A stretch of DNA of 64,000 nt, taken from NCBI GenBank assembly GCA_900545005.1, contig UQXO01000002.1, forward strand, positions 65,901-129,900. The letters run 5' to 3'. The position numbers were made by a program, and so were the translations under genes. Source of the stretch: an uncultured Mycoplasmatota bacterium (lineage in GTDB: Bacteria > Bacillota_I > Bacilli_A > RF39 > UBA660). Positions 1 to 9,822 of the stretch are shown here, piece after piece (the stretch's first letter is position 1; every line of letters begins with the position of its first letter). Below the pieces are notes generated by a model. That model was given only the letters and a program-made list of their open reading frames with translations. It was not told the DNA's origin and searched no databases.

Positions 1-537
1 CATAATCTGTCTTGAAGTTGCCGAGTCTAAATTGCCGGTTGGTTCATCAGCGAGAATAATATCGGGATTCTTAACTAGAGCTCTAGCTATAGCTACTCTT
101 TGTCTTTGACCACCGGAAAGCTCATTAATCTTTCTAAGTTTTAACTCTTCTAGGCCAACAGCTTTTAAGACTTCATCAACTTTATTTAAATTACTTTGAT
201 TACTAAGTTCTAAAGCTAGTTTAACATTATCATAAACATTATATTCTAAAAATAAATTATAGTCTTGAAAGATAAAACCAACACAAGTATTACGATATTT
301 TACGAGGTCCCTCTTGGATAAACTAGATACTTCGATATTATCTACTTTAATATGACCACTATCAATCTTATCAAGTCCTCCTAAAACATTAAGTAAAGTT
401 GATTTCCCAGAACCACTCTCCCCCGTAATAAAATATAACCCCGTACTAGGTATTTTAAAACTAACATTATCTAGTCCTAAAGTATCTTTAGTCTTCTTGG
501 CTTTATAAGTCTTTGTAACATTTACTAATTCTATCAT
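1..537 (-). CDS. ABC transporter ATP-binding protein, N-terminal 179 codons (3' end lies beyond the window edge)
   Basis: Own translation from the ATG at 535-537: [12 protein letters not shown]... with Walker [13 protein letters not shown] signature [14 protein letters not shown] and Walker B IILADEPT. Absent from the ORF track because it is truncated. Confidence 0.9.
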
Positions 538-649
538 ATATAATCCTTTACTATAAGAATAGTATACAAAAAAAATTAGTATTTGAAAACCATTCTTTTC
601 ATATAACGCTAAAAAGTTTTTTTGACCGATTGGAAAAAGTCTCAATTTT

Positions 650-683
650 AAAAAGTTTTTCCAATTGACTGGAAAAACTTTTT
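650..683. repeat. Perfect 14-bp inverted repeat AAAAAGTTTTTCCA-6nt-TGGAAAAACTTTTT, preceded by a degenerate copy at about 611-640; possible bidirectional terminator
   Basis: Read directly; the arms are exact reverse complements. It sits 5 nt downstream of the stop of ORF 688-873. Confidence 0.5.
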
Positions 684-687
684 AAAA

Positions 688-873
688 CTAAATTTCTGTT
701 TGATTTACATTTTCAATAATATTAATAAGTTCACGAGCTCTTTCATTAATCATTTTATTTAATAGACTTAATCTTTCATTGGAGACATTATATCTATCGT
801 GTTTTTTAAGCTTAAAATCTACTACTTTTCTTAAAAGAGCAGCTTGCTTTTTACTACAATAATGATTTGTCAT
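688..873 (-). CDS. Hypothetical small protein (61 aa)
   Basis: ORF track only. The strong AGGAGG upstream serves a different 12-codon frame, not this ATG, so the coding status is doubtful. Confidence 0.25.
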   Translation of the reverse strand: MTNHYCSKKQAALLRKVVDFKLKKHDRYNVSNERLSLLNKMINERARELINIIENVNQTEI

Positions 874-1155
874 AAATTTTTAATGTATACATATAGGTCC
901 TCCTGTCTTTAATTAAATATTCATTATCATCATAGTATCATTTAAGCCTAGAGAAGTAAATCTATGTTTAACCTTTCTTAATAATAGTAACTTTCATTTA
1001 CAATTTTTCTCTTTGATAAAAAAACAATTATTATACAGTTAACATTCTTATTATAGTCATTTTGTTAAAGTTAATATTCAATCGAAAATAAATCATATAA
1101 AAAAAGCTTAAATCAACTGATATTAAATAAAACTTTTTTATGTTTCTATATACTA

Positions 1156-1848
1156 TTATTTTTCTTCTTTATCTGGTCCTACATAAGTCAAAGTATCTCT
1201 ATGCTTTTTCTTATTGTTTTCAGGATTTATGGGGTGTTCTTTAAAATATTCATCGCTTCTTTTCTTAACATCATCAAACACTTTTAATAGTTCAAAATAA
1301 TAATTATGAGCTTTGTAATTGCCTTCCTCGGTGTAATCATTTCCTTTTTTTAGATTGTACCGTTCATATTTATCTATAATATAATCTTGAGCAAATTCAT
1401 AATAGCAATACGCATATCCAGGAAATCCATCGTAGCAGTGAAATTCATTTGGGTCTGATTGCATTTCATAATTTCCGATATATATAAAATTACTTAAGAC
1501 ATCTTTTCTTTGAAAATGGATAACATAAGTATAATCATAAAGAAAGCCATATTCATCTGGTACTTGTTTTACAACCTGTGGATTACAATAATTATATGAA
1601 GTAGAAACACCAACTATATATTTCAATTTATTTAAATTCTCAAGGCTCTTTGGAATATTGTTATCTTTAGTTATTTTAACTCTAAAAGCTTTTTCTTGTC
1701 TTGAAATCTTTTTCTCATCAAAAGGCATCATATTAAATATTAGATATTTTCCATTATATTCTGGATATTTGTCACTTTTTATTTTGTAAGCAAACGTATC
1801 ACCAACTACCCAATTTTTCATTCTTAATTTATCAATATCTTTTACCAT
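1156..1848 (-). CDS. Hypothetical cytoplasmic protein, possible orphan immunity protein at the distal end of the RHS cassette array
   Basis: 230-aa ORF with no signal peptide. The assignment rests on its position downstream of the toxin-tip/immunity cassettes; no motif was recognised. Confidence 0.4.
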   Translation of the reverse strand: MVKDIDKLRMKNWVVGDTFAYKIKSDKYPEYNGKYLIFNMMPFDEKKISRQEKAFRVKITKDNNIPKSLENLNKLKYIVGVSTSYNYCNPQVVKQVPDEYGFLYDYTYVIHFQRKDVLSNFIYIGNYEMQSDPNEFHCYDGFPGYAYCYYEFAQDYIIDKYERYNLKKGNDYTEEGNYKAHNYYFELLKVFDDVKKRSDEYFKEHPINPENNKKKHRDTLTYVGPDKEEK

Positions 1849-1917
1849 TCTATATCACCGACTTTAATTTCTTCACCATAGATATTTTTAGCATTAACAA
1901 ATTCGTTTTTATACTTC

Positions 1918-2364
1918 TTATTTAAAATAGCAAAAAATATAGTACAGCTTGTAACTGCTAGCATCATAGACTAATACTAGATTATTCCTTTTAGTACTTT
2001 TAATTTTGTAATATAAATTTTCATTTATTTCTTTGGGAAAATTTTCTTCAAACAAATGATAATACTCCGAATTATAATTTCTTTTACAAACTAAAATTTG
2101 ATTCTCTAAATGTTTTAAATCATCATGTTCTAATTGCTTTATTATATCATCACTATCCGATTGTTCATAATCAAAAATGTAAAATGCATCAGCCTCCTGA
2201 AACGCGTTTGGTGTTTCAAAAACACGAATTTCTCTTCTTGGCTTTTTTATTTCTATTTGTTTACTAAAAGACAAATTAACCTTATTATTGTATTGTCCAT
2301 AATAACAATTTTTCAAAATTAAAGCAAATACTATTACAAATAGACAAAAAATCATTTTTTTCAT
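1918..2364 (-). CDS. Putative immunity protein (148 aa, N-terminal signal/TM), paralogue of 3116-3553
   Basis: Start overlaps the stop of the upstream RHS fragment (TAATG). Clearly homologous to the 145-aa ORF (..DDIIKQL(E/D)HDDLKHLENQ(I/V)L(V/I)CKRNYNSE(Y/F)Y.LFEENFPKEIN..). Confidence 0.6.
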   Translation of the reverse strand: MKKMIFCLFVIVFALILKNCYYGQYNNKVNLSFSKQIEIKKPRREIRVFETPNAFQEADAFYIFDYEQSDSDDIIKQLEHDDLKHLENQILVCKRNYNSEYYHLFEENFPKEINENLYYKIKSTKRNNLVLVYDASSYKLYYIFCYFK

Positions 2365-2978
2365 TAATTATCAACACTTTCTGAATAAAAAATCATAAAA
2401 TCAACATCCCAAGCATAAGGTTGTAAAAGATTATTTTCTTGTAATCTAAGTCCAAAATTATTAGCCAAGGCTCCAAATCTGACAGAATTCTTTCGCCATT
2501 CAGTAAAATCATACACTCTATTTGTATCATAATAATATGACCTATATCTAAATGGGTTTATTAGAGCAACATTTGAAGTATCAGTTATATCTTTACCAGT
2601 AATATCTTTTATAGATAAGATATTACCATAAGCATCATAACTATAGGTACATACTTCTTTATAGTTACTATCATAGATACCAATAATATCATCAAAAGCA
2701 TTTTTCTTATAATAATATGTTTTATTATTATAAGTAAAACCTAAGAGATTATTACTGTCATCTCGTAAAAAGTATAACATATAATTTTTGTGTTTTTCAA
2801 TAACTATACTAGTATTTTCTAAGACATAAGATATTTCTTCATTATTTAATATTTTCTTAGTACGAATACCATTTCTATCATATTTATAAGATACATTTAA
2901 GTTAGTATTACTAATACTTTGTAATTCTCTACCATTACTCCAATTATAAGTAGTATTACCTATCTTTAAGGGATTACT
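2364..2978 (-). pseudogene. Orphan RHS/YD-repeat C-terminal fragment, 5'-truncated with an internally deleted toxin tip
   Basis: The frame is open from about 2975 with no start codon until the M at 2780. It reads NPLKIGNTTYNWSNGRELQSISNTNLNVSYKYDRNGIRTKK..MLYFLRDD..NPFRYRSYYYDT, then jumps straight to the last roughly 50 aa of the tip seen in 3553-4509 (VYDFTEWRKN..PYAWD.DFMIFYSESVDN). Confidence 0.7.
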
Positions 2979-3115
2979 TTTATAAATAAGAAATATACAT
3001 AAGTACCAGTATTAAATACTAAGTTTGATTAAAAAATAACCATCAGAACTAAATATCTATTTCTAATGATTACTTCTTATTTTTACATTTAATTTTTCAT
3101 TTTTTTTAATATCTA

Positions 3116-3553
3116 CTATTTAAAATAGCATCGAATATAATATAGCTTATTACTGTTTATATCGTAAACTAATATTAAATTGCCTTTTCTAGTATTCTTG
3201 ATTTTATAATATAAATTATTATTAATTTCTTTTGGAAAATTTTCTTCAAACAAGTTATAAAACTCCGAGTTATAATTTCTTTTGCAAATCAAAACCTGAT
3301 TTTCCAAATGTTTCAAATCATCATGGTCCAATTGTTTTATAATATCGTCACTATCTGACTTATTATAATTAAAAATGTAAAATTCGTCAGCATACCTGAA
3401 AGCATTTGGGGTCTTAAAAATCAACTTCTCTGCTTTTGGGCTTTTTATTCTAATTTCATTATCAAAATTTAAATTTACGAAATTATTATTTTGGAGTATT
3501 ATAAAAGCTATTATTAATACTAAAATAAATTCGAAAAACAATATTTTTTTCAT
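3116..3553 (-). CDS. Putative immunity protein for toxin tip A (145 aa, N-terminal signal/TM)
   Basis: Start overlaps the stop of 3553-4509. Paralogue of 1918-2364. Confidence 0.6.
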   Translation of the reverse strand: MKKILFFEFILVLIIAFIILQNNNFVNLNFDNEIRIKSPKAEKLIFKTPNAFRYADEFYIFNYNKSDSDDIIKQLDHDDLKHLENQVLICKRNYNSEFYNLFEENFPKEINNNLYYKIKNTRKGNLILVYDINSNKLYYIRCYFK

Positions 3554-4900
3554 TAATTATCAACACTTTCTGAATAAAATATCATAAAATCAGCATCCCA
3601 AGCGTAAGGTTCTATAAGTTTTGTAAACTGTAAAATATATCCAAAATCATTAGCAATGTCTCCAAGTCTAGCAATATTCTTTCGCCATTCAGTAAAATCA
3701 TACACATCGCTAATCCTTACTTGGACAATCCAATAATTATTTTGTTTTAATCCAGACACAGTATATCTAGCATGCTGAACAGAATAATATAAATCAGAAT
3801 CACTTATAAACTCTGTTTCTCCTCTTTCTTTGAAAGTATTTCCTGATGTTATTGATACATTTTTTTTAATAATTTCTTTCACTTCAATTGATTGTGCAAG
3901 TTTTTCTATTAATTGACGTTTAGTATCCTTATATTTATACGCATCAATGTTACTCTTTTCAAGTGCAGCTGAAAACATATTACCGGATATAGGCTTTTCC
4001 CACGCATACCCAACTAAGTGAGAAACATTAAAGATAGTTTCTCTTACTTTTGAAGTAACCATATCATAAATATAACCTAATATTCCTTTAGAACCAAATG
4101 CATCTCTATAACAGATAAAATTATTATTACAATAAGTGTATAAATTATATCCTATTACGGTTTTAGATGAGCCAATAAGACCATCACAATTAATAAACCT
4201 TCCCATCTTAGGACTATAATATCTACTATTTAAATAATAAAGATTAGTTTCTGTATCATAGTAGTATGATCTATATCTAAATGGGTTTATTATAGCAACA
4301 TTTGAAGTATCGGTTATATTTTTACCATTATTATCTTTTATAGATAAGATATTACCATAAGCATCATAACTATAGGTACATACCTCTTTATAGTTACTAT
4401 CATAGATACCAATAATATCATCAAAAGCATTTTTCTTATAATAATAAGTTTTATTTTTATAAGTAAAACCTAAGAGATTATTACTGTCATCTCGTAAAAA
4501 GTATAACATATAATCTTTGTGTTTTTCAATAACTATGCTAGTATTTTCTAAGACCTAAGAGATTTCTTCATTATTTAATATTTTCTTAGTACGAATACCA
4601 TTTCTATCATATTTATAAGATACATTTAAGTTGGTATTACTGAATACTTTGTAATTCTCTACCATTGCTCCAATTATAAGTAGTATTACCTATTTTTAAT
4701 GGATTACCTATACCATCATAAGTAATAGTAGCATTATTAAACTTAGTTAATTGGTCTTTATAATTAGCATTATCATAAGTATAAGTATCAGTATTTATTA
4801 AAGTAGTAGTATTAAGTTTATAGGTACTCTTAGATAAAATATTACCATAATTATCATAGGTATATTTATAAGTAATATCACACTCTAATATTATCCTCAT
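3553..4900 (-). pseudogene. Orphan RHS/YD-repeat core end plus C-terminal toxin tip A, disrupted
   Basis: YD repeats are present (YTYDNYGNILS, YSYDAYGNILS), as is the RHS core end YYLNSRYYSPKMGRFINCD followed by a unique roughly 210-aa tip. Relative to copy 2364-2978 there is a 1-nt insertion at 4642 (frameshift) and an in-frame TAG at 4555-4557. No N-terminal RHS body is present. Confidence 0.75.
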
Positions 4901-4923
4901 ATACTATCTATAAGGAGAGAATT

Positions 4924-5073
4924 ATGAAAAAAATATTTAGTATTATCATATGTTTAGTATTAATTTTAATGATTAGCTTACTTAGTGTTCACAATAAGAA
5001 AGATGAAGATAAGTCTTTAACGAAGGTGAAAGTTGCCGATACTACCATCACATCAAGGACATATATGAGTTAA
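4924..5073 (+). pseudogene. Truncated duplicate of the 5' end (promoter, RBS, signal peptide) of the ABC substrate-binding gene at 8823
   Basis: 4901-5036 is near-identical to 8800-8935. It reads MKKIFSIIICLVLILMISLLSVHNKKDEDKSL.KVKVA, then diverges and stops at 5071-5073. Confidence 0.85.
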
Positions 5074-5225
5074 TTCAAATTATCTATTCAAAAACTAAGG
5101 TTAATGAAGTATATAATTTAGGTAATACTACCAGTTTCAATATAGACCTTGAAATAGATGATACTTCATCATTTGGTAAACAAATAAACTATTTTAGAAA
5201 GCTTAAAAATATTAGAGCAAAAGCT

Positions 5226-5561
5226 ATGGCTAAAGCTCTAAACATTGGTTATAACACCATCTTAAGAATTGAAAATGATAATTTTAATCGGAAACTCAAC
5301 CATCAAAGTATTATAATATTAAATAAAATTATTGATTATATGGATATTAGAGATAAATTAAATTTTAGTAATAATGATTATCTTGATTTTATTTTAAACA
5401 AACAATCTAACACAATAGCGGAACTAAAAGAAAAAATAGGCAGAATAAAACTGGCTAAAGAATTAAAAGTAAGCCCTGACTCAGTTACCAGATGGATTAA
5501 CAATGAAGTCGTTATTTCAAAAGAAAATTATGCTAAATTAAAAGAGATACTTAAAAATTAA
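5226..5561 (+). CDS. XRE-family helix-turn-helix protein, apparently lacking a canonical start
   Basis: The HTH pattern FGKQINYFRKLKNIRAKAMAKALNIGYNTILRIENDN begins about 17 codons upstream of the first ATG. The frame is open back to 5013 with no ATG, GTG or TTG. Confidence 0.5.
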   Translation: MAKALNIGYNTILRIENDNFNRKLNHQSIIILNKIIDYMDIRDKLNFSNNDYLDFILNKQSNTIAELKEKIGRIKLAKELKVSPDSVTRWINNEVVISKENYAKLKEILKN

Positions 5562-5749
5562 ATAGTATCATCTTGAGATTTATGTTCTAAAATTTCAAAT
5601 ACAGCATCCAATATTTCATCTTTTGCCTTATCATCAATATTTAAGTTTTCAATACTTCTTAACAAAAGTTTAGCTTTAAAGATAGCTAAATTATCTAAAA
5701 AAAGTTTGGCACCTTCTTCGGTTGTAGGATAGTTAACAAATACTTGCAA
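5558..5749 (-). CDS. Hypothetical small protein (63 aa)
   Basis: ORF track only; convergent with and overlapping the HTH gene by 4 nt. Confidence 0.35.
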   Translation of the reverse strand: MQVFVNYPTTEEGAKLFLDNLAIFKAKLLLRSIENLNIDDKAKDEILDAVFEILEHKSQDDTI

Positions 5750-6655
5750 TTATATCCCCTCGTCCCTATATTTAATCTTATGCCAAACGATAATTTTAAT
5801 TATAAAATACTCTATTTATCTTCCTCCTTTTCAATATTTTATAAATATTTTTTTCTACTTTTTTACTTACTTTTTATACAAAATCGTGTACACTTTTATG
5901 TAACTCCTAAAAGCAGGATAACTACGGCTGACAAACAACTAGCCAGTGGCAAGTTAGCCCATAAATATAGACATTTACTTAACTTTAGATTGTCTGACGC
6001 CCTACCTGCTTGGATGACTTTTTGCTGACAAAAATTAAGCTAAATTTTACATAATTTTACGCTTTGTATGACAGTTGTTATAACAAAATCGGCTATTTTT
6101 TGCCCTAAAAATGCCTTATTTGTACATTGATTTGTGCCTAGATTCAAGTTTTTTATAAATTTTTGTGTACCTAATTAATCTGTACTTTTTTTAATTCTTT
6201 TAAGTTTTTTATTTTAAAAAGCCAACCTTTCTCACCAACTTTTTTCGTTAAAAAAAGAAATTCTAAACAACATTTCTATTGAATAAAATTTCTTTCTTTC
6301 GTTTATTAAAATGATTATATTTTTTTAAAAACTTAACCATCTTATCACATTATACTACGACTTTGTTTTTTTACAATAAACTAGATTGTACATTTTTTCG
6401 TAGTCATACAGTACATTAAACTGTAAACTTAATCGTAATTTAGCTTATTAGATATGATTTTTAGAGTAATTAATTTTAAATTCAAAAAGATTTTAAAATT
6501 GAAATATTTATGACTTTCTATTTTATAATTAACAACTTCTTAACGCTTATGCAAATATCCTATGATGATTTTTATATTATATAAGAAATATATCAAGTCA
6601 CTATTTATCACGCATAAAATTGAGTAGAGCCTTTATTTATAGATAACCAACACTT

Positions 6656-7348
6656 CTATCTTTTGTTAAATTCTATTTTTTTACCTAAAATTTTCAATTT
6701 ATAATCATCAAAATTATCAATTATTTTCCCATAATTATTATAAATTTTATAATTAGGATTATATACTAACTGTAATAATTTAAAATTTTCATTAGAATTA
6801 TCCTCTAAATCTTTAATTGATTTATCTTCATCAATTGAAATATTGATAAAATACTTATCATAAAAAGGGTATACATAAATATCATAACCATCTTTAGTAT
6901 AGTAATATATATCACTATATAAGTTTCTATCACTCTTCCATTGATTATTATCCAATGTAAAATATGAAACAAAAAATTTATTAACGAATACATATTCCTT
7001 TTCGGTAGAATAATATATAGTTTCTCCTTTACATTGGTCTGTATACTTGCACATTTCTAAAGCATTATCAAATTTACGAAACCCTGAAAATATTGGTTCA
7101 AGTAGAAGAGCAAATATTATTATCACTGGATAAGAAATTTTTAAAATTATTTTTCGTTTTTTTGACAAAAACTTGTCAGAGAAATATTTATGTATAAATA
7201 TAACAGTTAAAATGCTAACAAAAAGATCGATTGTTTGAGTATCATTAATTGTTGATGAAAATAGTAACCCAAACCTCAATGTTTCAAAACGGCTAAGCCA
7301 ATATAAAATACAATAAATAATTCCAAATATTGAATAATTTTTTTTCAT
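6656..7348 (-). CDS. Putative multi-pass membrane immunity protein for toxin tip B (230 aa)
   Basis: Lies immediately downstream of tip B. The N-terminal half contains about four hydrophobic helices (IFGIIYCILYWL, LFVSILTVIFI, ISYPVIIIFALLLEPIF). Confidence 0.55.
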   Translation of the reverse strand: MKKNYSIFGIIYCILYWLSRFETLRFGLLFSSTINDTQTIDLFVSILTVIFIHKYFSDKFLSKKRKIILKISYPVIIIFALLLEPIFSGFRKFDNALEMCKYTDQCKGETIYYSTEKEYVFVNKFFVSYFTLDNNQWKSDRNLYSDIYYYTKDGYDIYVYPFYDKYFINISIDEDKSIKDLEDNSNENFKLLQLVYNPNYKIYNNYGKIIDNFDDYKLKILGKKIEFNKR

Positions 7349-7364
7349 GTTGCCTTCCTAAATA

Positions 7365-8799
7365 TTAATAACAATTAGCAGCTGGTAATGGAACAATAGG
7401 TATTCTTTTGGTTATTCTATGACCAAAGTCCTTGATTATGTTAACGGCACTCTTTACGCCAGAAGCTACACCATTCCAGGCATATTGAAACCCGTTTACC
7501 AAGTGCTTGTTAAAAGAAAATTCATTTTGATATTCCATAGTATACACACTGTTATTTGTCATAGTAATTGAATGCGATACTCCGGTACCAATAGTGGTTC
7601 TTAAATCAAATGTAAAACCAAACGATACAGAATAATCAGTTGATTCATACTTACCATCATTTTTTGTAAATGACAAGCCAAGCTTAATTCCACTTTTTCG
7701 GTCACTAGATATAGAAACTCCAGCAGGTCCAATCTTTACCCCTCTAGTAGTTCCAGTATCTGTCTTTTCTTTTGAAAACTGAATAAAACTCTCAGAAGAT
7801 ACATCGCCTGTAGATAATTTAGCATCAACACTGCTTTGGTATCCGCCAACAAATGGAATAACATGGTTAACACCTGAATATGGGATGTCTACACTATGAC
7901 TAACATAATTGGTACTACCAAACAATCCTACTGTTTTTTCAAATACGCCAGATATTCTACTTAATAATGAGCCAATAAGTTTTCCAAATTTACCATTGCT
8001 ATCAACTTGATTTACAGGATTATTGCTGCAATATGCATATAAATTATAGTCTTTCATTTTTGCAGTTGTAGAAACTATGGTGTCACAATTAATAAACCTT
8101 CCCATCTTTGGACTATAATATCTACTATTTAAATAATAAAGATTAGTTTCTGTATCATAATAGTATGATCTATATCGAAATGGGTTTATTATAGCAACAT
8201 TTGAAGTATCAGTTATATCTTTACCAGTATTATCTTTTATAGATAAGATATTACCATAAGCATCATAACTATAGGTACATACTTCTTTATAATTGCTATC
8301 ATAGATACCAATAATATCATCAAAAGCATTTTTCTTATAATAATAAGTTTTATTTTTATAAGTAAAACCTAAGAGATTATTACTGTCATCTCGTAAAAAG
8401 TATAACATATAATCTTTGTGTTTTTCAATAACTATGCTAGTATTTTCTAAGACCTAAGAGATTTCTTCATTATTTAATATTTTCTTAGTACGAATACCAT
8501 TTCTATCATATTTATAAGATACATTTAAGTTGGTATTACTGAATACTTTGTAATTCTCTACCATTGCTCCAATTATAAGTAGTATTACCTATTTTTAATG
8601 GATTACCTATACCATCATAAGTAATAGTAGCATTATTAAACTTAGTTAATTGGTCTTTATAATTAGCATTATCATAAGTATAAGTATCAGTATTTATTAA
8701 AGTAGTAGTATTAAGTTTATAGGTACTCTTAGATAAAATATTACCATAATTATCATAGGTATATTTATAAGTAATATCACACTCTAATATTATCCTCAT
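7365..8799 (-). pseudogene. Orphan RHS/YD-repeat core end plus C-terminal toxin tip B, disrupted
   Basis: The core is the same as in 3553-4900, up to MGRFINCD. It is followed by NLYAYCSNNPVNQVDSNG and a unique roughly 200-aa Gly/Ser/Thr-rich tip. It carries the same 1-nt insertion (8541) and the same in-frame TAG (8454-8456) as the other copy. Confidence 0.75.
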
Positions 8800-8822
8800 A
8801 TACTATCTATAAGGAGAGAATT

Positions 8823-9803
8823 ATGAAAAAAATATTTAGTATTATCATATGTTTAGTATTAATTTTAATGATTAGCTTACTTAGTGTTCACAATAAGAAA
8901 GATGAAGATAAATCTTTAATGAAGGTGAAAGTTGCTGAAGTTACCCACTCAGTTTTCTATGCTCCTTGGTATGTAGCTATAGAAAATAATTATTTTAAAG
9001 ATGAAGGTTTAGACATTGAACTAATCTTAACACCAGGGGCTGATAAGGTAGCAGCAGCCGTCTTATCTAATGATGTTAATATTGGTTTTGCTGGTTTAGA
9101 AAGTACAGTCTATGTCTATAATGGTGGTGAGGATGACTACTTAGTTAACTTTGCTGGTCTTACGAAAAGAGATGGTCAATTTATTTTAAGTCGTTCTAAA
9201 GATGATAACTTTAATTTAGAAAAGTTATATGGTAAAGAGATTTTGGTAGGACGTCAAGGAGGAATGCCAGCCTTAAATTTCTTAAATGCTCTTAAGAAAA
9301 TGAATGTTGATAGTAAGAAAATAAATCTTAACTATTCGGTTGAATTTGCGGCTTTATCAGGATCATTTATTGGCGGGATGGGCGATTATGTTAATCTTTT
9401 TGAACCCACAGCAACTAAACTAGAAAAAGAATCCTTAGGATATGTAGTTGCTAGTATTGGTGCATATTCAGGAGAAATGCCATATACTACTTACTATGCG
9501 AGAAAAAGCTATATTGAAAGTAATAAAGATATAATTGATAGATTTAGGAAAGCCTTAAATAAAGGGTTAGAATTTGTTAATAATAATGAACCAGAAGTAG
9601 TAGCAGAGATTATTCATAATCAATTTAAAGATGAAAGTCTTAATAATTTAACTACAATGATTAAAAGATATAAAGATTATGATTGTTGGTATAATGATAC
9701 TCATATTAAAGAGATAGCTTATCAGAATTTAGAACAGGTTATGTTAGATAATAATCTAATAGAAAAGAAAACAGATTTTAATATTCTTGTTAATAATAAT
9801 TAA
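8823..9803 (+). CDS. ABC transporter substrate-binding protein (NMT1/THI5-like, NitT/TauT family)
   Basis: Signal peptide plus SBP-like sequence (VKVAEVTHSVFYAPWYVA..). Heads an operon with an ATPase and a permease. Confidence 0.75.
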   Translation: MKKIFSIIICLVLILMISLLSVHNKKDEDKSLMKVKVAEVTHSVFYAPWYVAIENNYFKDEGLDIELILTPGADKVAAAVLSNDVNIGFAGLESTVYVYNGGEDDYLVNFAGLTKRDGQFILSRSKDDNFNLEKLYGKEILVGRQGGMPALNFLNALKKMNVDSKKINLNYSVEFAALSGSFIGGMGDYVNLFEPTATKLEKESLGYVVASIGAYSGEMPYTTYYARKSYIESNKDIIDRFRKALNKGLEFVNNNEPEVVAEIIHNQFKDESLNNLTTMIKRYKDYDCWYNDTHIKEIAYQNLEQVMLDNNLIEKKTDFNILVNNN

Positions 9804-9822
9804 TAAATTCTAAGGAAATATA

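Follow-up and report, generated by a model that had tools for sequence, protein, structure and literature searches.

A duplicated Rhs fragment beside a transporter operon of an uncultured gut Mycoplasmatota bacterium as the probable product of recombinase-element insertion, allelic replacement and gene conversion

The locus described here lies at the left end of a 64,000-nucleotide stretch of DNA from an uncultured Mycoplasmatota bacterium (contig UQXO01000002.1 of assembly GCA_900545005.1, positions 65,901 to 129,900), which is called the window in the following, all positions being counted from its first letter. The genome assembly is of the metagenome type and comprises 1.2 Mb in 25 contigs with 27-29% GC at 93.5% completeness; the genus is one of uncultured Bacilli from the human gut, in which genome sizes span ~1.0-1.9 Mb (mostly 1.1-1.4 Mb), and includes 'Mycoplasma sp. 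CAG:956'. In this genus the locus, situated between an ABC-transporter gene and the operon of an NMT1-type substrate-binding protein (SBP), forms a hypervariable island made up of Rhs remnants. In the window, the island holds three 5'-truncated Rhs fragments, each followed by toxin tips and small immunity-like genes, together with the remnant of a mobile element of a large serine recombinase (LSR). Taken together, its architecture is probably the outcome of insertion of an LSR element in the SBP gene, allelic replacement of the recombinase half of this element and subsequent gene conversion between the resulting copies.

The left anchor of the variable locus is the 5' part of the ABC-transporter gene on the minus strand (1..645 in the list of open reading frames, ORFs), which in sister strains is present as a full gene of 823 amino acids (aa), in which ATPase and FtsX permease are fused (domains ABC_tran and FtsX). 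A conserved 61-aa ORF beside it (688..873, minus strand) marks, as a remnant, the 'empty site' in relatives. Equally on the minus strand, and also in the ORF list, a 230-aa immunity-like gene of the p230 family (1156..1848) has no Pfam or NCBIfam match, and its paralogues occur in Rhs-downstream arrays and in the cargo of recombinase elements. There follow on the same strand the putative immunity gene immB' (1918..2364, 148 aa), orphan B' (2364..2977) with its Rhs fragment (2523-2977) and a tipB-like toxin tail, the putative immunity gene immB (3116..3553, 145 aa), the start of which overlaps the tipB stop codon, the putative toxin tip tipB (3553..4182), a 209-aa variable C-terminal region after ...FINCD, and the 5'-truncated YD/core fragment of copy B (4184..4896), which carries a TAG codon and a frameshift. 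The plus strand then encodes the SBP part of copy B (4897..5038; SBP'), with promoter, ribosome-binding site and codons 1-38 of the SBP gene up to an attL crossover at ~5036-5039, and the decayed left arm of the recombinase element (5039..6463), consisting of an XRE-family gene (5226-5561, HTH_3 domain with E = 2.5e-6, the frame being open from 5039), the convergent orf63 (5558-5749, minus strand), which has a homologue in the left end of an element in a different host (L069), and non-coding DNA. The second cassette, again on the minus strand, comprises immA (6656..7348), a 230-aa hydrophobic putative immunity gene for tipA that starts 16 nt after it, tipA (7365..8081), a 238-aa variable C-terminal region rich in Gly/Ser/Thr, and the truncated Rhs fragment of copy A (8083..8795), likewise with TAG and frameshift. 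To the right, the plus strand carries the SBP promoter with the intact SBP gene region (8796..9803). The SBP gene itself (8823-9803, 326 aa, NMT1 family, NMT1 domains being recorded on orthologues) contains an unoccupied attB at ~8923-8945 (codons ~34-41), and the ATPase and permease genes of its operon (9823..11347, plus strand) form the right anchor of the locus.

The Rhs fragments are recognised by the profile Rhs_assc_core (TIGR03696, cut-off 32.5), which in a genome search scores 76.7 bits for copy A and 65 bits for copy B (72.7 and 61.2 bits on the proteins); a match to YD_repeat_2x is weak at 16.3 bits. Over its residues 381-459, an 823-aa Rhs ORF of genome G007 with RHS_core and YD_repeat matches shares 93% identity with the fragment, and this ORF, located at a different locus, provides the intact reading of the region that is broken in the window (...ELQSISNTNLNVSYKYDRNGIRTKKILNNEEISYCLENSS...). 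After ...FINCD, the tips of copies A and B diverge. TipA-like sequence terminates Rhs proteins of 2046 and 2063 aa elsewhere, which match RHS_repeat, and tipB has a homologue among the orphans (P0125); judged by these sequence relatives, tipA and tipB are genuine Rhs tips. In other strains, tipA follows an intact stump of 477 aa (P0121), and tipA and immA travel together on five further contigs (L055, L063, L093, L097, L098). No full-length rhs gene with a delivery domain is present in the assembly, either contiguous with the fragments or elsewhere: a profile search of the whole assembly gave 2 core and 3 YD matches, all inside this array, and a tblastn search with the G007 Rhs protein recovered only these fragments. 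A clearly full-length, deliverable rhs was equally absent from the genomes examined. The initial annotation had described an array of orphan Rhs tip/immunity cassettes with no Rhs N-terminal body in the window, a description that stands and extends to the rest of the assembly. Because the genome lacks an rhs body, the tips cannot be delivered, and the immunity genes would be what can still act at the locus.

With respect to the activity of the tips, sequence searches of Pfam, NCBIfam and PDB gave nothing significant for tipA or tipB, and neither immA nor immB matches a Pfam or NCBIfam family. A candidate assignment of tipA as ADP-ribosyltransferase was disregarded, the best match having E = 0.075, and a further homologue of the tipA domain was not recovered among proteins of 190-607 aa. 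The composition of tipA and its hydrophobic 230-aa partner suggests a pair of membrane-acting toxin and membrane immunity protein. As for expression of the orphans, ~50 of the 150 best representative matches are ORFs of ~200-350 aa (most 300-350) that share one Met start (MLYFLRDD or MIYYIRDE). A conserved internal start was rejected as unsupported: since the ~130 aa upstream of the shared Met contain no Met, any 5' truncation leads gene callers to this ATG. No Shine-Dalgarno sequence precedes it; in the window, a ribosome-binding site is found neither before the stump ATG nor before the internal MLYFL ATG.

Self-alignment of the locus shows that the block 4184-5036 recurs at 8083-8935 over 853 bp, ungapped, with 98.7% identity and an offset of exactly 3899, so that the repeat of about 856 bp noticed initially is real. 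Its content, too, had been described correctly: the block comprises the Rhs core end (...YYLNSRYYSPKMGRFINCD) on the minus strand, the abrupt 5' limit of Rhs homology at ~4877 in copy B and ~8776 in copy A, and the upstream region of the SBP gene with codons 1-38 (4897-5038 = 8796-8937). The shorter third copy of the Rhs block lies at 2523-2977 (456 bp) and is 95.6-96.1% identical to both long copies. It had also been stated that each copy is followed by a different tip and a different downstream gene. This applies to copies A and B and does not apply to B': its toxin part shows an internal deletion relative to B that removes most of the toxin domain, the immB' protein is 65% identical to immB, and the immB' and immB regions (1906-2516 vs 3103-3705) share 78% DNA identity. 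By sequence, B' is thus a decayed paralogue of B rather than an unrelated cassette.

A tandem segmental duplication does not describe this arrangement, as 853 of the 3899 bp recur and the intervening 3046 bp occur nowhere else in the genome. On its left, the repeat ends at the boundary between Rhs core and tip, where two different tips begin. The 13 mismatches between copies A and B are unevenly spread, with 10 in 4183-4396, 3 in 5013-5037 and none in the 616 bp between (4397-5012), an emptiness that has P = 7e-8 under uniform spread; polarising these mismatches against outgroups gave mixed signals.

The right edge of the repeat is understood from relatives. The SBP gene is present in 17 of 17 species representatives and the DNA upstream of it is variable. 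In G016 (L038) the site is empty, and the ABC-side remnant, the 61-aa ORF, lies 57 bp from the SBP promoter. The closest species (G002) carries a 93-aa Rhs stump with immB-, p230- and immA-like genes, its Rhs remnant beside the SBP promoter being a different, shorter one that begins at ~8413. In G011, G013 and G005, the junction between rhs fragment and SBP promoter is identical to that of the window, which places the truncated stump before the origin of this species. The junction of SBP' with the XRE arm does not occur in the examined DNA of G002, G005, G011 and G013. The 5038/5039 junction is real and common: an exact-sequence lookup found the 49-aa ORF that spans it, unaltered, on at least 21 contigs (29 index blocks) of independent ENA and Logan assemblies. 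On five contigs (L058, L059, L061, L063, L064), the ABC gene is followed directly by SBP' and XRE via the same 57-bp 'empty' junction, and no Rhs DNA lies beside SBP'.

One contig of this lineage, L065, carries the complete element, in the order ABC gene, SBP' joined to XRE, orf63, non-coding DNA, immunity-like genes, a 1353-aa protein and an LSR of 582 aa (Resolvase E = 8e-37, Recombinase 1e-16, Zn_ribbon_recom 2e-10) that is joined to the SBP gene from ~codon 36. Identity between L065 and the window is 95.0% for the element arm, 95.8% for the ABC gene and 95.5% for SBP, so that the arm looks co-inherited with its flanks. Aligned at the crossover, attB of the intact SBP gene in the window reads ...AAGGTGAAAGTTGC followed by TGAAGTTACC, attL ...GTGAAAGTAGC followed by CGATACTACC, and attR of L065 CGAGGTGATGGTAGC followed by AGAAGTAACTC; all three, the window SBP and the two L065 junctions, share ...GTGA..GT.GC around the crossover. 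The reconstructed circular attP junction of the L065 element joins ...GGTGATGGTAGC to CGATACTACC.... In other hosts, LSRs of 82-85% identity directly abut 5'-truncated NMT1 SBP genes followed by ATPase and permease (L069-L075). In one of these, L069, the left junction (...LTKVRVA/DTTITSRKYMS and stop, compared with ...LTKVKVA/DTTITSRTYMS and stop in the window) lies at the same codon, is followed by a 140-aa XRE with TTG start and the orf63 homologue, and the right junction resumes with VRVAEVTHS. In the window, the ancestral TTG start of XRE is now TTA (5070-5072), by a G-to-A change that also converts the SBP' stop codon TGA into TAA. These comparisons, made on sequence, identify SBP' as the attL scar left by a family of elements that insert site-specifically at this codon and 5039-6463 as the left arm of the element; the alternative of 5039-5230 as a diverged continuation of SBP was discarded, there being no similarity beyond codon 38. 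An LSR homologue is present neither in the window nor in its genome. The window thus has attL (5036-5039) and an intact attB, no attR, whereas L065 and L069 have both junctions: it is a remnant of an LSR element and not a full member, and, as recombinase and attR are gone and the intact attB lies 3.9 kb away, it is immobile.

These findings bear directly on the mechanism favoured in the initial annotation, in which the array had grown by recombination at the Rhs core, dragging the 5' end of the SBP gene along. In such a scenario, one event anchored in the core, by unequal crossing-over or homology-facilitated illegitimate recombination, would have had its other end by chance within SBP, with no mobile element involved. 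The left edge of the repeat at the core/tip boundary and the displacement of tips at this locus agree with it, and recombination could in principle end illegitimately within an adjacent gene. The general premise that recombination at the core displaces tips was indeed recovered here, as a tipA in L055 has been pushed to an orphan position by another tip. However, the right edge is the very nucleotide position at which LSR elements join SBP in L065 and, in a different host, L069; the join of SBP' and XRE occurs in strains without Rhs DNA beside SBP'; and the DNA to the right of the junction is the conserved left arm of the element with XRE and orf63. Given these facts and the restriction of the repeat to 853 of 3899 bp, a purely core-driven origin is very improbable, and the claim that SBP DNA was dragged along by core recombination has to be abandoned.

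The history that accounts best for the observations would have started with the site-specific insertion of an LSR element at ~codon 37 of the SBP gene of an ancestor, producing an attL (SBP codons 1-38 joined to XRE, orf63 and further element DNA) and an attR (the LSR end of the element joined to the rest of SBP). The attL and attR junctions are observed; the insertion may have been a single ancestral event. In a second step, a double crossover between this element-bearing allele and an element-free allele would have replaced the LSR half and attR by an uninterrupted segment with immunity gene, tip, rhs fragment, SBP promoter and intact SBP. One exchange would have taken place in rhs/immunity homology common to the cargo of the element and the chromosomal island, and the second within or downstream of SBP. 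The outcome would be a fossil attL arm between two paralogous copies of rhs fragment, SBP promoter and 38 codons, and hence two cassette slots. Afterwards, the copies would have recombined with each other, including a conversion of 302-616 bp from A to B, and cassettes would have shifted between the slots.

Several observations lead to the second step. With no recombinase, no attR and an intact attB, excision of a complete element alone cannot yield the window. Element-free alleles as partners for a double crossover exist in G002, G011 and G013, and candidate homology for the exchange is provided by paralogues of p230 and immA in the L065 cargo, with DNA patches of 74-90% identity to the island, or by the Rhs cores. 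Allelic replacement moreover explains why only 853 of 3899 bp are repeated, why the right edge is the att crossover and why the left edge is the point of tip divergence. Homologous recombination is the most likely cause of the replacement of the recombinase half.

On the other hand, the same product could have arisen within one cell. Unequal sister-chromatid exchange between the slot-1 island and the cargo would generate two attL, upon which the LSR would excise the segment between distal attL and attR, rebuild attB and remove itself. This route yields exactly the observed architecture, DNA uptake is unnecessary, and cargo and slot 1 do share immunity-gene homology; precise excision is known for gene-intervening LSR elements, namely gin with GirC in gerE (PMC5595907) and skin in sigK (PMC5025042). 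Yet an SBP 5' end rebuilt in this way should equal SBP' up to the crossover, and copies A and B differ at 3 of the last 25 bp. The divergence of A and B before conversion of ~3.3% (L062 copy B vs window copy A) is also close to the distance to G002 (3.4%), which favours an imported allele, and no recombination directionality factor was identified. Mainly on the 3/25-bp difference and the ~3.3% divergence, the within-cell route is rated below allelic replacement and considered unlikely.

Insertion followed by allelic replacement has to be weighed against observations that do not favour it. The left exchange point, at 6463-6655 or in the rhs core, displays no diagnostic sequence; the second step is read back from the end product only, a product which sister-chromatid exchange followed by LSR excision would equally give; and the complete element has been found in this lineage on a single contig, L065. 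As site-specific integration repeats the same junction, identical junctions do not prove a single insertion; the 3 mismatches within the final 25 bp of the repeat, too, are no specific prediction of this history. Finally, all sequences are metagenome assemblies, in which the phasing of variants inside the 853-bp repeat can err.

The gene conversion is revealed by two lesions common to copies A and B. The first is an extra plus-strand G at 4642 (copy B) and 8541 (copy A), a +1 frameshift, the second an in-frame TAG for TAT (plus-strand C at 4555 in copy B and 8454 in copy A). Shared lesions suggested inactivation before duplication, a conclusion that is contradicted by the closely related contig L062, which is 99.73% identical to the window over 8282 bp. 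Its 22 differences are strongly clustered, 17 falling within 4537-4838 (P = 8e-21), and its copy B lacks the extra G and reads TAT instead of TAG, with an open ORF of 448 aa. None of the eight other copies compared (from slots 1 and 2 of 4-5 strains, from G007, and B') has the extra G; TAG is absent from the four of these which share the flanking bases of the window, the remaining four differing across the codon. B' has neither frameshift nor TAG, and the lesion-bearing 87-aa ORF is found in only two other assemblies. On this comparison of sequences, frameshift and TAG are recent and private to this lineage, and a conversion tract of 302-616 bp would have carried them between the copies, most simply from A to B; in copy B the tract lies within 4397-5012 and covers at least 4537-4838. 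Copies A and B of L055 share private variants as well. TipA-immA adjoins SBP' in L098 and the intact SBP in L097, which indicates that cassettes move between slots.

As a separate observation, the strain-private derived variants in 8436-8737 and 4537-4838 are mostly AT-to-GC (A to G at 3 sites, T to G at 2, A to C at 1, and one inserted G) in an AT-rich genome. Such an excess is not what ordinary mutation bias usually gives and may point to DNA imported from an unsampled allele or to error-prone repair.

The identity of the middle 616 bp of the copies, in a 25-contig assembly of metagenome type, might raise the suspicion that two co-existing strains with different tips were concatenated or that the repeat was mis-phased, the more so as a MEGAHIT contig of 4007 bp (L093) starts and ends within the repeat. 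Against such an artefact, independent assemblies of L062 (99.7% over 8.3 kb), L055, L066 and L097 show the parts in the same order, a 304-kb scaffold (L055) spans both copies and SBP, and the 5038/5039 junction is found on at least 21 contigs. Mis-phasing could touch the conversion claim only and not the architecture, so that an assembly error as source of the arrangement is hardly credible at all.

Beyond its origin, the fossil attL might be regarded as a two-slot cassette exchanger, in which the two copies would serve as homology arms for shuffling cassettes between slots and between cells, the array being retained and renewed solely as a defensive repertoire of immunity genes, and allelic repair of an LSR-split gene being a recurrent route of duplication. 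This extension is tentative and, as a whole, rather doubtful.

Further features of the element family and the flanks were recorded. In the complete element, the 1353-aa protein adjoins the recombinase (L065 3825-7886 = L068 5180-9241) and is followed by a 73-aa ORF; as a candidate rhs body it was rejected, having no YD repeats and no Pfam match, and the two ORFs may form a different kind of toxin/immunity pair. Many contigs (among L057-L060, L064, L066, L097 and L098) have a cluster of 8-10 kb between the XRE and orf63 homologues; its genes are for an RsgA-like GTPase, a radical SAM enzyme, two ATP-grasp enzymes and an arginase, to which an Orn/Arg decarboxylase and a PALP enzyme may be added. 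In L059, a YcaO protein and a C39 peptidase are encoded at this position instead. These inserts look like peptide- or amine-modifying biosynthetic cargo. A DNA search across the family with 5039-6655 gave mostly AT-rich noise, with the sole exception of a comparatively GC-rich, non-coding 240-bp patch in the arm (5887-6125), which is matched at 84% by an unrelated place in G010 (C2:14341-14579). The core of the patch, 5908-5963, shows 80-87% matches in ~10 genomes of other genera of the family and no Rfam match; an element-borne RNA, an oriT and a regulatory site are all conceivable. The 40 bp at 6491-6530 recur at 85-97% identity on other contigs of the same genome (C5 twice, C12, C23, C24) and in other genera, a small dispersed repeat. 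Just beyond the ABC gene, L061 (1788-2312) and L063 (1750-2274) carry a ToxN-family toxin gene (PF13958) that is absent from the window. At the right end of the locus, where the permease gene meets the convergent gene that follows, a near-perfect palindrome of 34 bp (94%; 11363-11396) lies between the two and is probably a terminator for both directions. A 64-nt inverted repeat with 77% complementarity (41-104/10223-10286) has both arms in oppositely oriented ABC ATPase genes and thus reflects conserved ATPase motifs, not a structural element. In 1-12000, no Rfam match at E <= 1 and no tRNA were found.

An apparently simple segmental duplication can, as illustrated by this locus, result from site-specific insertion, homologous replacement and gene conversion acting together, and the strain comparison demonstrates that lesions common to paralogues do not date a duplication. 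Equally, in small-genome uncultured Bacilli of the human gut, Rhs tip/immunity cassettes are still exchanged long after loss of the delivery gene, which fits the idea of an immunity-only 'defensive' island. For gene-intervening elements, loss of the recombinase half, most likely via allelic replacement, is a possible fate besides excision.

Among known processes, concerted evolution of dispersed repeats by gene conversion is familiar from rRNA operons and tuf genes. The locus resembles these in the private variants common to copies within one genome, in A and B of both the window and L055, and differs in that two inactivating lesions have spread between pseudogene copies. As to the element, SPbeta in spsM is a gene-intervening LSR element. 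Others are gin in gerE of Bacillus cereus, with GirC/GirX (PMC5595907), and skin in sigK (PMC5025042). Similar to these, the non-phage element of L065 and L069 has an LSR at one end and a fixed site in a coding sequence, and its excision could rebuild the gene. Unlike these, the window retains the attL arm only, recombinase and attR being gone, and the targeted gene, in a gut lineage with small genomes, is a transporter gene with no sporulation link known.

With regard to the cassettes, orphan rhs-CT/rhsI and cdiA-CT/cdiI modules downstream of rhs genes and C-terminal displacement have been described (Poole et al. 2011, PMC3150448; Jackson et al. 2009, cited there), including a retained core piece with an in-frame stop in Y. 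pseudotuberculosis IP32953 (PMC3150448). As in those modules, rhs core pieces, some with in-frame stops, are followed here by unrelated tips and small immunity genes, and tips are displaced by core recombination (L055). In contrast to them, a full-length rhs is found nowhere in this genome, the 'head' is a 5'-truncated stump fused to the promoter of the neighbouring gene and common to species of the genus, and a mobile-element scar divides the array into two slots. Immunity-gene arrays of the type VI secretion system in Vibrio cholerae arise from sequential effector displacement (PMC5361080). There as here, immunity genes and effector remnants gather at one locus via homologous recombination with incoming alleles, and by analogy a benefit of the immunity array is likely to be defensive; the host here belongs to the Bacilli, the cassettes are of the Rhs type, a delivery apparatus is not evident and the array is duplicated. 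The locus is a new instructive case in which known processes, Rhs C-terminal displacement, an LSR element, allelic replacement and gene conversion, are combined, rather than a new type of system.

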